From contig JBEAYU010000072.1 of the NCBI GenBank assembly GCA_041170435.1, positions 6,509 through 70,508 on the forward strand: DNA of 64,000 bases, written 5' to 3'. Source of the stretch: Bacteroidota bacterium. GTDB taxonomy: Bacteria > Bacteroidota > Ignavibacteria > Kapaibacteriales > Kapaibacteriaceae. Below, one piece after another: positions 43,567-48,825 of the stretch (its first letter is position 1; each line of letters opens with the position of its first letter). The translations under genes were made by a program, and so were the position numbers. The notes beneath the pieces are model-generated. The model ran no database searches and was not told the DNA's origin. It worked only from the letters and a program-made list of their open reading frames with translations.

Positions 43567-45102
43567 TCAGTGATGACGTCGACGAGAGATAATGCCGCCC
43601 GATGTGTCCTTGATGGCACTGGCAAAAACAAAGGCATTGGGATCGACTTCAGAGATCAAGTTTTTAAGCTTGCGCAGTTCAAGTCGCGTGATCACGGTAA
43701 AGATGATGTCGCACTGCGTGCTCACGTGAAAGCTCTCCGGCAGAAAGCCCCGTTCGCCCTTATACACGGTAATGCCCCGACCGAGGTTATTGACGAGCTG
43801 ATGTTTGATCTCTTCGCTCTTTGCCGAGATGATCGTCACGCCGGTAAACGCTTCCAAGCCCTCGACCATGTAGTCGATACAGCGCGATGCAGTGAAGTAC
43901 GTCAGGATCGAATACAAGGCCGTCTCGATCCCAAACACGAAGCCGGCGACAACGAAGATCATCACATTGATGGCCAGTATGATCTCGGCGATGGTGAAGC
44001 TTGTTCGGCGCAACGTGTACAGGGCCAGCACCTCGATTCCGTCAAGTGCGGCGCCGGCACGCATCACGAGCCCGACGCCAATTCCGAGAAACGCCCCACC
44101 GAAGACGGCGACAAGGAGTTTATCGCCCGTGGCAGAAACAGACGGGATGACCTCCAGACAAATGCCCAGAAGCAGGACTCCAAAGGACATCCCAATGGCA
44201 AACCGCTTCCCCGCCGAAAGATAACCGGCGATGATCAGCGGCACATTCAATAGGACGATCAGAAGACCAAGTGGCCAGTGATTCAGCTCATGAATCAATA
44301 GCGAGATGCCGGTGACGCCACCGTCGACGAAGTGATTCGGCACAAGAAAGTCCTTGAGCGCGATACTCGCCATCACGACACCGACAATGGTCAGAAGCAT
44401 ATCTCGGCCGTATTCATTCCACAGTGAACCACTGGCAGGGGGCTCAGCACTGACGTGCGTGCCTGTCGACATTTCTGCGTTGAGCTGACGGCGTATGTTC
44501 TCTAGGTTGACAGCTTTCTGAGCATCGAACATCCGGCGCGCCGCGTCTGTATGGTAGGAGTGCTGTGAGATAAAGCCGACCTGCTGTCTACGCCATGCGT
44601 GGTCGGTCAGTTCCGGCTGAGTGATCCGATACTCTTCGTACATACGGTCAGCGTATGATTGATATGCCGCACTTGCAAGGGGTGCTAGATCAGCGTCGCA
44701 CACGACCATGCTTATGTGATCTGTAGGATTTTGGGGAACCTGCGTGCTGCGAATAGCTCGGCAGACCGCCTCGATCGCTTGAACATCGTAACCGAATGAA
44801 GGAAGATTCTCTCGCGCCCACGCACAAGAACGCTCTTCATGTCCTGCGCGCCCATCCCTATACCCCACGTCATGCAAGAGGGCCGCCGTTTGCGCAAGAA
44901 TCATCGAGCGCTCATCAAGACCCTCCGCCTGTGCGATGCGCTCCGCGTCAGCGAGTACCTGCAGGGCATGTTCAGCATTGTGATAGGCATACTCCTTGCC
45001 GATGTGGCGTTGCATGTATGCGATAACGACGTCTTTTAGGTCAAGAAACTGCATTGGTACGTTTGCCAGTAATGATGGATGGTGAGTTCCTAGAAGTATC
45101 AC
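43567..45102 (-). CDS. HD-domain phosphohydrolase fused to a YitT-family (DUF2179) membrane protein
   Basis: The N-terminal roughly 200 aa contain YHNAEHALQV and AALLHDVGY (H...HD). The C-terminal roughly 290 aa contain FVDGGVTGISLLI, five TM helices and the DUF2179-like tail GVTIISAKSEEIKHQLVNNLGRGITVYKGERGF. The GTG start at 45102 overlaps the cyclase stop; an alternative ATG is at 45054. Confidence 0.75.
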   Translation of the reverse strand: MILLGTHHPSLLANVPMQFLDLKDVVIAYMQRHIGKEYAYHNAEHALQVLADAERIAQAEGLDERSMILAQTAALLHDVGYRDGRAGHEERSCAWARENLPSFGYDVQAIEAVCRAIRSTQVPQNPTDHISMVVCDADLAPLASAAYQSYADRMYEEYRITQPELTDHAWRRQQVGFISQHSYHTDAARRMFDAQKAVNLENIRRQLNAEMSTGTHVSAEPPASGSLWNEYGRDMLLTIVGVVMASIALKDFLVPNHFVDGGVTGISLLIHELNHWPLGLLIVLLNVPLIIAGYLSAGKRFAIGMSFGVLLLGICLEVIPSVSATGDKLLVAVFGGAFLGIGVGLVMRAGAALDGIEVLALYTLRRTSFTIAEIILAINVMIFVVAGFVFGIETALYSILTYFTASRCIDYMVEGLEAFTGVTIISAKSEEIKHQLVNNLGRGITVYKGERGFLPESFHVSTQCDIIFTVITRLELRKLKNLISEVDPNAFVFASAIKDTSGGIISRRRHH

Positions 45103-46394
45103 GTGTTCTCTGCTTCACTCGATGCGCCATCAGCCGGTGTTGCATCAGATACAACAAAGACATCGATCTCTCCGCGATTCTTGGCCATCACTGTCCCTGA
45201 GTGCGTGCACGGCACCTCGCCTCGCACGAGTTCGTGCGTCACCGAGCTCATGCTGATACGGTTGACCTGGCCAAGTTGCTGAAGTCTTGCCGCTACATTG
45301 ACAGTGTCTCCCCAAATATCGTAGGCAAACTTCTTCTTACCCACGATGCCGGCGACAACCGGACCGGAGTGAACGCCAATGCGCACGTCAAACCCTGTTC
45401 CGCTCTGCTGCACTTCCTGCTGATGCATCTCTTCAACCACAGCCAACATCTCACGAGCGGCGGCGATGATGCGCAGGGCATGCTCTTCAGACTCGACAGG
45501 CAAACCAGCGACGCACATGTAGCTATCGCCCATGGTCTTGATCTTCTCTATCCCATGCCGATCCATGATCGAGTCGAACCTCGTGAAATACCGGTCGATG
45601 TGCGTGACCAGTTCAGTTGCCGTCATGGTCTGGCTGATGCGCGTGAAGCTGACGAAGTCTGCGAAGAGCACCGATACCATCTCGTAAGCGCGAGGTCGCG
45701 CCACGCCAACAGATTTCAACTCCTGCACGGTAGCTTCAGGAAGAATATTCAATAGAAGACTGTCACTGAGCTCCTGCTCCCTGCGCAGCTCCTCCTGCTT
45801 TTCTTCGAGAAGTCTCAGGGCATCGTTCTTGGTCTGTTCGTAGGTGTTCGTCACAAGAAACATGATGATCACAAGCCCGCTCAATGCCAACGTCAAAAAG
45901 ATGGTGTGAAATGACGGGATGTAGGTAACTGGTATGGATGCGATCGAATCATGCATGAGTACCATCACGATGACGTAGGCCACCGACACCACGACGAAAA
46001 CAATGGCGGTTCGCACGTTGCAGAAGATCAGTGCAAAGATCGCAGGTAAAATGATGAAGGGGGTGACGGGCGACGTGAAGAGTCCGCCCGAAAATGTCAC
46101 AAGGATAATGTTCAGCGCGAGGATAAACGACGCGAAGATCACTCCAAGGAGCCAAATCGAGCGGCCGCTTCGAAGCACAAACGGCAGCGCCGCAAACATC
46201 ACCACCGAGGCAATCATTGCGTAAAGGCCCACCGTGAAGTTGATAAAGTAGCTCATCACTCCGTAGGTGCCGGCAAAGAGGGCAACAATCAGGCTGGTTG
46301 CTACGAAGATCTTGTGACGACGGATGGTATCCGGCCGCTGCGCCAGATCGGCAGGCAGAAAGCTGTCGAGCCAAGCTGAGAGACTTAACTTCAT
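45099..46394 (-). CDS. Membrane-bound class III adenylate cyclase (6 TM plus catalytic domain)
   Basis: VSVLFADFVSFT and KTMGDSYMCVAGLP supply the metal Asp residues and the adenine-specifying Lys. FAYDIWGDTVNVAARL supplies the specifying Asp and the transition-state Asn/Arg. The start overlaps the upstream 7-TM gene stop (ATGA at 46391-46394). Confidence 0.85.
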   Translation of the reverse strand: MKLSLSAWLDSFLPADLAQRPDTIRRHKIFVATSLIVALFAGTYGVMSYFINFTVGLYAMIASVVMFAALPFVLRSGRSIWLLGVIFASFILALNIILVTFSGGLFTSPVTPFIILPAIFALIFCNVRTAIVFVVVSVAYVIVMVLMHDSIASIPVTYIPSFHTIFLTLALSGLVIIMFLVTNTYEQTKNDALRLLEEKQEELRREQELSDSLLLNILPEATVQELKSVGVARPRAYEMVSVLFADFVSFTRISQTMTATELVTHIDRYFTRFDSIMDRHGIEKIKTMGDSYMCVAGLPVESEEHALRIIAAAREMLAVVEEMHQQEVQQSGTGFDVRIGVHSGPVVAGIVGKKKFAYDIWGDTVNVAARLQQLGQVNRISMSSVTHELVRGEVPCTHSGTVMAKNRGEIDVFVVSDATPADGASSEAENT

Positions 46395-47095
46395 GTCGAG
46401 ACACCAACCTTCTGCGATCGTTGCAGCAGGATCAGGTACAGTACATCAAAGAATGCGACCGTCAAGTAGAGTGTGGTCAAGAAGAGATTGTCGGGGTACT
46501 TCGTTTGGAACATCACACTGATGATCCCCGTGCCCACAAATTTTGTCCAGGCCAGCAGCCTCGAGGACTCTTGTGAACCTTTGGACAGCAGGAGTCCGAT
46601 GAATGCAATGGACATGACTACGTTGACGAGGTAGTTGGTTATCACGGCCATCGGCAGGTCATACTGCACCATGAAAGATGAGCACAGGGATATGCTGAAG
46701 ATGAAACTCACGGTGATAAGCCATCCGAAGTTCTGCCTCACGAAGCTTGCTTTGAACTGATCGCGACCGTAACGAAAGAGATTGAGGATGATCACGATAT
46801 CAAGCAACATCCACATCCAATAGGCAAGAACAAGTGCCTTTCCCATGTCCGGTACAAAGAAGATTGCCGCCCCAACCTCTGCTCCGAAATTGCAGATCAC
46901 TGCGGCAACAGGAATGATGAGTTCTTTCTTTCTGAATGCCGCACGCAGAATGATGACGTATGCAATGATCCAGGCCACAGCTCCGATGGTAAAGAGCGCG
47001 ATCTGCCATGGATGGTAGTTCGTCGTGTCAAACCATGGATGCTGACTCTGTAGATACTCCCAGATTGGCATGCTAACCCCGCTGATACGTGTCAT
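46391..47095 (-). CDS. Hypothetical 7-TM membrane protein; possible PaxB/Pyr4-like integral-membrane terpenoid cyclase
   Basis: 234 aa with seven hydrophobic helices. TM1-TM2 read WIIAYVIILRAAFRKKELIIPVAAVICNFGAEVG, and an acidic residue sits in the last helix (AFFDVLYL). An alternative start is ATG 47071. Confidence 0.6.
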   Translation of the reverse strand: MTRISGVSMPIWEYLQSQHPWFDTTNYHPWQIALFTIGAVAWIIAYVIILRAAFRKKELIIPVAAVICNFGAEVGAAIFFVPDMGKALVLAYWMWMLLDIVIILNLFRYGRDQFKASFVRQNFGWLITVSFIFSISLCSSFMVQYDLPMAVITNYLVNVVMSIAFIGLLLSKGSQESSRLLAWTKFVGTGIISVMFQTKYPDNLFLTTLYLTVAFFDVLYLILLQRSQKVGVST

Positions 47096-47109
47096 ATCTC
47101 AACCAGCCT

Positions 47110-48825
47110 TCAGGCCGGTGTGCGTCCGAAACGATGACGCAGAAAGGAAAGAACGGACAGTCCGAATTCGACCAGGCAGTTCATGGGTGGACGCCATGGT
47201 AGCCCCCTATCATAGCGTCGCTTGTCGAGCGCTCTCAGCGCCTGCAGGGCAACTGGCTCGTGGATGTCCCAGACCGCACATTGTTGGGCCCTATTGCCTG
47301 TAGACTCGAGAATTGCATTGACGGCCCGTCGTGCAGCTTCGTTAGCTGCCTCCATGGTGGCCAGGTCCGTATTGGTCCGTACGTAGTCAGAAGCGAGAAA
47401 GAGATTATCGATCGCCGAATAGGCCTCTGGCCGGTCGTCCCATGATCGCACGGTATTGACAAGCAGCGGCTCTTCATTCATCTCGCGTTCGTGCGGCAGC
47501 GCCCTGATATCTCCATCAATATGCCAGTACTCGATCATGTCGTCAGACAAGACAACGGTACCATCCACATTGAGAGCATCACAGAGTTGCTTCCATACCT
47601 CTATGCGGATATCCTCGTGCGAGCATTCGCGGGCGATCTTTCCGTTCGAACCCGGAGTGTCCCATGCCGAAACATCAACCGACAGGATGCATCGTACCCG
47701 ACCGTTGCCGCGTTGTTCGATATTATATCCCGGCCAGAACTGCAGCTGGGATATTGACGTCAGTGCCCACGGGGAATCTGAATAAATGGCATGCCCGTGT
47801 ACGATTGGTCTATCGGTGTTCAGGTAGTACTGCACGCCATTCATCCAGGCCACGCTGGGAGCCAAGCGCACGATTCCCTGTAGGTTGGAATCAAGCGCCA
47901 TCAATTCTTCGGTCATCAGTTTGGCTGCGCGCTCAACCGGAACCGCGAGCACGTAGATGTCGGCTTGAACTTCATGAAGGTGGTTTGAGGAATCCTTGAC
48001 CGTTGCCGATGCGATGGTGGATCCGCCAACGGTGAGCTTCTCAACGGTATGGCCAAGATGAAAGCGCACTCCGCACTGTTCAAGATACTCTCTCCAAGGC
48101 GTGAGCCACGCATCATTCGTTGGTCCATTCAGAACCCTGTCCGTGTGCACTCCCGGACTGGACATGTTGAAGAGCAATTGAAGGAAAATGTTCCCGCCTG
48201 TCTTTGTACTTGCCGAGTGGGCATTGGCGGCAACCAGCGTTCGTGTTAACCCCTGAACAAGCAATGCCCGATAGGTGTCACTGAACCGATCAGCCTGCAA
48301 GAAGTCCCACCAGGCAATTCTCTCGTACTCATCGCGACGCCGCTCCCGGCAGCTGGTCATCAACTGCCACACTCTCTCGGCGAAGAAATCCATCTCCTCG
48401 TCGGAGAGACCGGTATCAGCCGTCAGGTCGCCAAAAAGTACTCTTACGTCTGCGATGGTCTTTGGAAAATTGACGATCGCCGTGAGCGATGGTTTCCCCT
48501 TTCGCGCAACGAGTACCCGATCTGTCGGCGTAAGGTTGTCGAACACGGTTGCAACCTTTCCGTCGGCCCGGCGATAAGGGATGCGTGACATGGTATCTGT
48601 CACGTGACGATAGAAGCCGGGAAAGAATCGGAAGCCGTGCTCTCCCGGAAGAGACCTATCAGCATGCATCTGATTCGTCCCCGGCACATCAACACTGCGC
48701 GCCTTGCCACCGACATACACATGATGCCGGTCATAGACGTCAACAGTGAAGCCCCGCTCAACGAGCTCATGCGCTGCGCTCAGGCCGGCCACTCCGCCGC
48801 CAAGCACAGCAACTCTATGTGCCAT
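47110..48825 (-). CDS. FAD-dependent oxidoreductase, amine-oxidase / phytoene-desaturase-like
   Basis: VAVLGGGVAGLSAAHELVERGFTVDVYD....GGKARS is a Rossmann dinucleotide fold. GEHGFRFFPGFY parallels the PDS/ZDS segment. The ATG at 48825 is preceded by GGGGAGG. The 57-nt upstream extension in the ORF track was not used. Confidence 0.75.
   Translation of the reverse strand: MAHRVAVLGGGVAGLSAAHELVERGFTVDVYDRHHVYVGGKARSVDVPGTNQMHADRSLPGEHGFRFFPGFYRHVTDTMSRIPYRRADGKVATVFDNLTPTDRVLVARKGKPSLTAIVNFPKTIADVRVLFGDLTADTGLSDEEMDFFAERVWQLMTSCRERRRDEYERIAWWDFLQADRFSDTYRALLVQGLTRTLVAANAHSASTKTGGNIFLQLLFNMSSPGVHTDRVLNGPTNDAWLTPWREYLEQCGVRFHLGHTVEKLTVGGSTIASATVKDSSNHLHEVQADIYVLAVPVERAAKLMTEELMALDSNLQGIVRLAPSVAWMNGVQYYLNTDRPIVHGHAIYSDSPWALTSISQLQFWPGYNIEQRGNGRVRCILSVDVSAWDTPGSNGKIARECSHEDIRIEVWKQLCDALNVDGTVVLSDDMIEYWHIDGDIRALPHEREMNEEPLLVNTVRSWDDRPEAYSAIDNLFLASDYVRTNTDLATMEAANEAARRAVNAILESTGNRAQQCAVWDIHEPVALQALRALDKRRYDRGLPWRPPMNCLVEFGLSVLSFLRHRFGRTPA

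Follow-up and report, generated by a model that had tools for sequence, protein, structure and literature searches.

A Pyr4-type terpene cyclase homolog encoded between a desaturase-like flavoprotein and a membrane adenylate cyclase in a mobile cassette of Kapaibacteriaceae

To our knowledge, Pyr4-like membrane terpene cyclases have so far been known solely from natural-product biosynthesis. A stretch of 64,000 nt from a Kapaibacteriaceae genome of the phylum Bacteroidota (assembly GCA_041170435.1, contig JBEAYU010000072.1, positions 6,509 to 70,508), referred to as the window in the following, encodes a homolog of these enzymes, here termed TMTC1, directly between a flavoprotein and a membrane-bound adenylate cyclase. 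This raises the question what a terpene cyclase homolog does next to a second-messenger enzyme. By profile match and residue conservation, TMTC1 is a genuine bacterial homolog of fungal membrane terpene cyclases of the Pyr4 type. It is part of a four-gene cassette, and its place between a flavoprotein and a signaling enzyme is conserved across three lineages. The flavoprotein and TMTC1 may provide the lipid ligand of the adenylate cyclase, a reading that is weighed below against a role of TMTC1 as a sensor and against ordinary lipid tailoring.

TMTC1 and the Pyr4 family of membrane terpene cyclases

The initial annotation had described TMTC1 as a 234-residue protein with seven hydrophobic helices and a PaxB/Pyr4-like signature. 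The family assignment is supported by a profile match above the curated Pfam threshold: the Pyr4-TMTC model (PF25129) matches TMTC1 with an E-value of 2.2e-13 and 50.9 bits (gathering score 27). The match covers residues 27-200, corresponding to profile positions 10-188, and a six-frame search of the genome agrees. PF25129 is the sole Pfam match of TMTC1 at E<=1; none of the NCBIfam models matches the protein. Among 122 homologs found, nearly all carry PF25129, and a Lacibacter ortholog with 62% identity is named 'transmembrane-type terpene cyclase' by NCBI. The family is modest in size: when 1.84 billion representatives were searched exhaustively with the profile, 948 clusters were obtained at E<=1e-3 and 49 clusters at E<=1e-30. 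Family membership as such was already known through Pfam and the NCBI naming. The comparison of acidic residues with DmtA1, the cassette boundaries, the domain fusions and a second module with an MpaB-type oxygenase are added here.

The open reading frame (ORF) is confirmed, and the seven helices are borne out by an AlphaFold2 model based on 34 homologs (predicted local distance difference test score, pLDDT, 87.9; predicted template modeling score, pTM, 0.83), which places them at residues 29-55, 63-79, 86-113, 123-145, 149-172, 179-199 and 204-233. The motif-bearing stretch quoted in the annotation, AWIIAYVIILRAAFRKKELIIPVAAVICNFGAEVG, is present at residues 41-75, and AFFDVLYL of the last helix at residues 214-221. 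The start codon is probably the second ATG (M9) because the homologs begin at MTIWEYL. A PDB sequence search with the 7-transmembrane (7-TM) profile returned no significant match, and no solved Pyr4 structure was found.

Six residues are invariant in 34 sequences with identities down to 42%: N69 and E73 in TM2 (NFGxE; NFGAE in TMTC1), D99 in TM3, D146 after TM4 (YDLPM), K185 in TM6 and D217 in TM7 (FD). The model locates E73 within helix 63-79 and D217 within helix 204-233. Thus both acids that had been singled out beforehand as the likely catalytic pair, the glutamate of NFxxE and the aspartate of the last helix, passed the conservation check in all 34 sequences. In a set of 31 sequences that includes far more distant Bacteroidota, N69, D99 and D217 are still invariant and E73 is kept in 28. 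In DmtA1, E60 and D214 are the residues conserved in membrane terpene cyclases including Pyr4 and proposed as cyclization catalysts, and an additional D94 is important where an olefin, not an epoxide, gets protonated (PMC6173783). Numbered from M9, the acids of TMTC1 are E65, D91, D138 and D209, a spacing close to E60/D94/D214, and like DmtA1 the protein has the extra aspartate in TM3. D217 would be the counterpart of the Pyr4 TM7 aspartate by position and conservation only, as the Pfam match ends at residue 200. At the sequence level, the Pyr4/PaxB signature is far beyond chance. The predicted activity is a protonation-initiated cyclization of a prenyl chain.

TMTC1 resembles the members of PF25129, namely fungal Pyr4, PaxB, AusL and MacJ as well as bacterial XiaH/XiaE, DmtA1, TylF, GroF and the zig cyclase, in its size (~226-234 aa), its seven TM helices, the conserved TM2 glutamate (N-F-x-x-E) and TM7 aspartate, and the oxidizing enzyme encoded next to it. 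It differs from them in several respects. The partner is a dehydrogenase with the fold of phytoene desaturase (PDS), or an MpaB/Lcp-type oxygenase in a paralogous module, and not a PaxM/Pyr5 epoxidase or a P450 enzyme. A prenyltransferase or scaffold-forming enzyme is missing, and the conserved third partner is a signaling enzyme. The TMTC domain also occurs in fusion proteins with an adenylate cyclase, a histidine kinase or GGDEF-EAL as output. Finally, the genes are found in Bacteroidota and Acidimicrobiia and not in actinomycete natural-product clusters. The known bacterial members, including DmtA1, are natural-product enzymes, and XiaH, TylF, GroF and the zig cyclase act in natural-product clusters (PMC13307353).

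Partner genes, conserved neighborhood and cassette boundaries

The genes next to TMTC1 and the related modules and fusions are listed in Table 1. The upstream gene had been annotated as an FAD enzyme of the PDS/amine-oxidase type, different from PaxM. Pfam (Amino_oxidase, E-value 9e-16; NAD_binding_8), NCBIfam and the fold match all agree with this assignment, and the FAD_binding_3 model stays at 15.9 bits with a cut-off of 22, as expected for a protein that is not PaxM-like. The best NCBIfam model is HpnE (TIGR03467) with 85 bits, below its equivalog cut-off of 283 bits. The models of CrtD and CrtI reach at most 28 bits (cut-offs 550-580), and those of PDS and ZDS are also far below their cut-offs. 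The top structural match of the AlphaFold2 model (pLDDT 83.7) is rice phytoene desaturase (5mog; TM-score 0.82 on the target, E-value 8e-23); amine oxidases, protoporphyrinogen oxidase and oleate hydratases rank behind it. The flavoprotein shares the fold and the dinucleotide-binding motif with PDS and HpnE, but it is ~100 residues longer and scores far below their equivalog cut-offs.

The genome has its own HpnE (372 bits), CrtI (621 bits) and a CrtD-like gene (356-363 bits) elsewhere, together with a CrtB-like gene. On account of these genes and of the scores below cut-off, the flavoprotein is, as judged from its sequence, a separate and strongly conserved subfamily of the PDS clade (mean column identity 61%) and not the squalene or carotenoid enzyme of the genome. 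As a candidate for the HpnE of this genome it was ruled out, since it scores 85 bits against a cut-off of 283 and the gene with 372 bits is located on contig C1. By analogy to the clade, its substrate is probably a long, lipophilic isoprenoid chain, and its electrons probably pass to a quinone. Its start was set from the homologs and a GGGGAGG box, which probably mark the ATG 3' of this box. Some orthologs are named 'hydroxysqualene dehydroxylase' by NCBI and UniRef. This name is doubtful and looks over-transferred because the HpnE model stays far below its cut-off on the window protein and the genome has an HpnE of its own.

Downstream, the start codon of the adenylate cyclase overlaps the stop codon of TMTC1 (ATGA). 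The encoded protein matches the Pfam model Guanylate_cyc (E-value 5e-49) and has all canonical class III residues: D246 and D290 for metal binding, K286 and D359 for adenine recognition, and N366 and R370 as the transition-state pair. The active site is thus intact by sequence. Residues 23-412 align with the Mycobacterium tuberculosis adenylate cyclase Cya/Rv1625c (7yzi), that is, over nearly the full length. Six hydrophobic segments are located within residues 29-182. With the order of a 6-TM domain, a helical linker and a catalytic domain, the protein resembles Rv1625c and the mammalian membrane adenylyl cyclases (class IIIa). In contrast to Rv1625c, its 6-TM part represents a distinct family, which occurs on histidine kinases too and is linked at the gene level to a pair of lipid-modifying enzymes. 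We know of no dedicated ligand-making partner of Rv1625c.

In other loci, a histidine kinase takes the place of the adenylate cyclase. The N-terminal parts of these kinases are matched over the full length (E-values 1e-47 to 1e-52) by a hidden Markov model of residues 1-215 of the adenylate cyclases. Therefore, one 6-TM domain serves alternative outputs, an adenylate cyclase or a histidine kinase. The domain has an invariant GG at the turn between TM3 and TM4, with the pattern [ST]GG[LI]x(3-6)P[WF]. Its likeness to the quinone sensors RegB/PrrB, which have a GGxxNPF loop, was tested: the member in the window matches NF033792 weakly (E-value 0.02) and is the only one of 15 family members to do so. 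In two other genomes, the domain is also found on a kinase and on a cyclase beside the paralogous TMTC2 described below.

To characterize the genomic context of the TMTC1 subfamily, a pattern scan with one genome per species was performed, which yielded 47 loci from Kapaibacteria, Chitinophagaceae, Cytophagales, Saprospiraceae, Flavobacteriales and Acidimicrobiia. Culturable carriers are Algoriphagus aestuarii KCTC 42199, Aquiflexum lacus CUG 91378, Ilyomonas limi and Lacibacter sp. H407. The flavoprotein is encoded upstream of the cyclase homolog in 45 of them, directly abutting in 43 cases and at a distance of 0.6-2 kb in two; the two loci for which it was not seen are cut or short contigs. 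Downstream, an adenylate cyclase is found in 29 loci, a histidine kinase in five and no such gene in four, while the contig ends in nine. Of the 38 loci that extend far enough downstream, 34 thus have a membrane signaling enzyme there. Genes for cyclic nucleotide monophosphate (cNMP)-binding and HD proteins recur near the modules. For more distantly related Pyr4-TMTC genes, located in small Bacteroidota genomes, the neighborhoods are heterogeneous and uninformative.

The last gene of the group, encoding an HD phosphohydrolase fused to a YitT/DUF2179 membrane protein, begins with a GTG that overlaps the adenylate cyclase stop codon. All four genes (43567..48825) are absent as one 5.3-kb block in four of the five congeners that are readable at this position. 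There, the backbone consists of a carboxyltransferase, a GlcD-like gene, in some cases a Zn-ribbon gene, GT2, MATE and a sigma factor, with GlcD or the Zn-ribbon gene abutting GT2. This joint absence defines the functional unit as the flavoprotein, TMTC1, the adenylate cyclase and HD-YitT. The fifth congener (G438; locus L090, 2347..8236) has ~6 kb of other DNA at the GT2/GlcD junction, without similarity to the cassette genes, and in a sixth the contig ends before the junction. The junction may be a recurrent insertion point. The TMTC family was found in 25 of the 401 genomes of the phylum sample and in none of the seven congeners searched. The lower guanine-cytosine content of the cassette (54.2% vs 57.3% for the window) fits acquisition, albeit weakly, as membrane proteins bias composition. 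Judged from its sequence context, the cassette is a small, horizontally mobile accessory unit. None of its four genes encodes a prenyltransferase, UbiA, polyprenyl synthase, polyketide synthase, P450 or epoxidase.

Table 1 Features of the TMTC1 locus and related modules and fusion proteins (window coordinates unless a contig is given)
Feature	Position	Strand	Length	Remarks
Pyr4-family 7-TM terpene cyclase homolog (TMTC1)	46391..47095	-	234 aa as ORF	probably 226 aa from ATG 47071
PDS/ZDS/HpnE-clade FAD flavoprotein	47110..48825	-	571 aa	from ATG 48825 (probable start); mechanical ORF extends to TTG 48882
Membrane class IIIa adenylate cyclase	45099..46394	-	431 aa	6-TM domain, coiled linker, catalytic domain
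6-TM sensor domain	45800-46394	-	~205 aa	adenylate cyclase residues 1-205; no Pfam model
HD phosphohydrolase fused to YitT/DUF2179 membrane protein (HD-YitT)	43567..45102	-	511 aa	Pfam HD, YitT_membrane, DUF2179
Second module, same genome	C78:24114-32017 (locus L053 5141..12017)	-		TMTC2 between oxygenase and signaling protein
Fusion Pyr4-TMTC + Guanylate_cyc			717 aa	
Fusion Pyr4-TMTC + HisKA + HATPase_c			806 aa	
Fusion Pyr4-TMTC + GGDEF + EAL			909 aa	
Fusion Pyr4-TMTC + PAS-domain protein			693 aa	fourth signaling fusion; name given by source
Fusion Pyr4-TMTC + MpaB/Lcp oxygenase			623 aa	
Fusion flavoprotein + DUF6989			806 aa	

Second module and domain fusions

The same genome contains a second, paralogous module. 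TMTC2 (221 aa) matches PF25129 with an E-value of 3e-17, has the motif CGNFAWE and is related to the TMTC1 family with an hhalign probability of 99.9. Its neighbors are an MpaB/Lcp-type oxygenase (406 aa) on one side and, on the other, a 1677-aa Ser/Thr kinase-AAA_16-GAF-adenylate cyclase protein, which is followed by a bestrophin-like gene. The phylum sample contains six further genomes with the order MpaB, TMTC2 and signaling protein. Thus, two different oxidizing enzymes of isoprenoid type are each paired with a Pyr4-type cyclase and a signaling protein.

Natural fusion proteins were found among the long matches of the exhaustive profile search (Table 1). The signaling fusions have an unannotated soluble linker of ~300 aa in common, do not contain the 6-TM domain, and keep the motifs NFxWE, LD and LD. 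A replacement of the cyclase homolog is seen in Hufsiella ginkgonis (locus L049, 9748..11842), where the same flavoprotein subfamily is encoded together with a DUF6989 membrane protein in the position of the cyclase, followed by a histidine kinase with the same 6-TM domain. DUF6989 was considered as a divergent Pyr4 domain and rejected, as no relationship was detectable (hhalign probability 0.3 with a single DUF6989 sequence).

Proposed mechanism and alternative explanations

With modest confidence, the flavoprotein and the cyclase are proposed to produce, from an isoprenoid of the membrane, a ligand that the 6-TM adenylate cyclase binds. In the first step, the monotopic PDS-like flavoprotein would desaturate or otherwise oxidize the polyprenyl chain of a membrane isoprenoid, with a menaquinone-type prenylquinone, a carotenoid or a squalene-derived lipid as candidate substrates. 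The 7-TM enzyme would then protonate the chain via its buried acids E73 and D217, with D99 as an extra acid, and cyclize it within the bilayer. Next, the 6-TM domain of the neighboring Rv1625c-type adenylate cyclase would sense this cyclic lipid or the enzyme in complex with it; in other species, the same domain on a histidine kinase would do so. The synthesis of cAMP would be set in this way, and the HD protein is a candidate off-switch for the nucleotide signal. The 6-TM domains of class IIIa cyclases, including that of Rv1625c, are reported to act as lipid receptors, and the proposed ligand fits this published role (PMC11606603, PMC12505454). The fungal logic of oxidizing a prenyl chain and then cyclizing it in the membrane would be kept in outline, with a different oxidase, without scaffold genes and with a signaling enzyme as third partner.

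As for the substrate, the source genome (rated 100% complete) is predicted to make squalene via the HpnCDE route, as it encodes HpnC and HpnD in tandem and a bona fide HpnE (C42:90087-91949 and C1:4487-5821). No match to a squalene-hopene cyclase was found in this genome. Squalene was rejected as a general substrate since other carriers have one or no SQS_PSY gene. Nine of 35 module-bearing genomes, all nine metagenome-assembled genomes (MAGs) of unknown completeness, lack an SQS_PSY match, and HpnCD is restricted to the Kapaibacteria among the carriers; for these reasons, neither squalene nor C40 carotenoids would be the general substrate. A prenylquinone would be the most general candidate, because some carriers seem to be devoid of both squalene and phytoene synthases.

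Several points weigh against a ligand-making enzyme pair. The patchy SQS_PSY and HpnCD distribution just described removes two of the three candidate substrate classes as a common denominator, and we know of no substrate, product or activity of any member of the subfamily. PDS-type flavoproteins are dehydrogenases or isomerases and not epoxidases, so the epoxidase-then-cyclase logic of fungi is not directly transferable. The cassette provides neither a prenyltransferase nor a polyprenyl synthase. The four loci without a downstream signaling gene, which all belong to one clade, consist of flavoprotein and cyclase only. The fusions of the TMTC domain to soluble outputs without a 6-TM domain fit a 7-TM sensor at least as well as a ligand maker. 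Lastly, the closest solved folds in the fold search are weak matches to cystinosin, SWEET and the KDEL receptor (TM-scores 0.5-0.57, E-values ~1e-2), that is, to transporters and receptors of SWEET/PQ-loop/KDEL-receptor likeness.

The last two points lead to the strongest alternative, in which the 7-TM protein is mainly a sensor or co-receptor. It would bind a membrane isoprenoid, which may have been modified by the flavoprotein and may also be turned over, and signal to the 6-TM cyclase by helix-helix contact, in the manner of a 7-TM input module. This alternative is serious because direct fusions exist: the TMTC domain forms an N-terminal membrane module with three different outputs (adenylate cyclase, histidine kinase, GGDEF-EAL), besides the fusion named after its PAS domain, and this is the usual architecture of bacterial sensor domains. 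The similarity of the fold to the KDEL receptor and the translational coupling of the genes through the ATGA overlap point in the same direction. It is nevertheless regarded as rather unlikely, since the catalytic acids are strictly kept, fusions included, and since an oxidizing enzyme is always encoded upstream or fused, which argues for chemistry and not just for binding. The sensor and the enzyme readings are compatible, as TMTC1 could be an enzyme and signal by its own turnover.

Less probable still is an ordinary lipid-tailoring pair, in which flavoprotein and TMTC1 produce a cyclic membrane isoprenoid, such as a hopanoid-like surrogate from squalene, a cyclized menaquinone or a carotenoid end group, and in which the cyclase or kinase regulates this pair or is merely co-inherited. 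Fungal Pyr4-type enzymes do cyclize triterpenes as well (PMC11109268). The squalene route of the source genome, in the absence of a squalene-hopene cyclase match, and the clade that has flavoprotein and cyclase without a signaling gene would also be in line with this explanation. However, the linkage to signaling is seen in more than one phylum, and gene fusions strengthen it. The restriction of HpnCD to Kapaibacteria among the carriers and the nine carriers without SQS_PSY also speak against this explanation. Moreover, a structural lipid would be expected to be kept more uniformly than a cassette that was not found in the seven congeners searched.

A carotenoid pair of CruF/CrtD type (hydratase and 3,4-desaturase), which the initial annotation had offered as its second choice, or a meroterpenoid cluster of fungal or actinomycete style is very improbable and largely refuted: even though the flavoprotein belongs to the broad carotenoid-desaturase superfamily and the known bacterial Pyr4-like cyclases work in natural-product clusters (PMC13307353), TMTC1 has no Caroten_synth match at E<=1, the CrtD and CrtI models stay far below their cut-offs in a genome with separate CrtI and CrtD-like genes, and the synteny-defined cassette is unlike a meroterpenoid pathway because it lacks a prenyltransferase, polyprenyl synthase, polyketide synthase and P450, as well as an epoxidase.

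Beyond the window, the occurrence of both modules leads to a broader and more tentative proposition than the ligand for a single cyclase: bacterial Pyr4-type cyclases may have been recruited as the core of a lipid-signaling system, in which an oxidase (PDS- or MpaB-like) and a cyclase make or detect a cyclic isoprenoid in the bilayer. This event would be relayed, via the 6-TM domain or within a fusion protein, to outputs of the adenylate cyclase, histidine kinase or c-di-GMP type. No description of the signaling linkage or module, of DUF6989 or of the 6-TM domain was found in the literature. Out of 1107 bacterial homologs, a survey from 2026 kept the 264 that adjoin terpenoid genes and set the rest aside (PMC13307353). 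The present locus exemplifies part of this remainder: here, the cyclase belongs to a conserved, horizontally mobile cassette in which it is coupled to second-messenger enzymes. Should this coupling be functional, terpene-cyclase chemistry would extend from metabolite production to the generation or perception of signals, and a new 6-TM sensor domain common to adenylate cyclases and histidine kinases would be defined. Under the broader proposition, this would be the first 6-TM class IIIa adenylate cyclase encoded together with the makers of its membrane ligand. With a functional coupling, the locus would also offer a tractable bacterial system for what class IIIa membrane domains bind, as the genome itself nominates the makers of a candidate ligand.

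HD-YitT may serve as the phosphodiesterase in this system. In its HD part, it shares 32% identity (E-value 6e-33) with a stand-alone HD gene that lies beside the Lacibacter module, near a cNMP-binding gene.

The MAG Candidatus Kapaibacterium sp. ZLKRG19 contains the whole module on two contigs, with cyclase homologs that are 80% and 79% identical to that of the window. The two sequences belong to separate 90%-identity clusters, and their co-occurrence could reflect a duplication or mixed strains in the bin.

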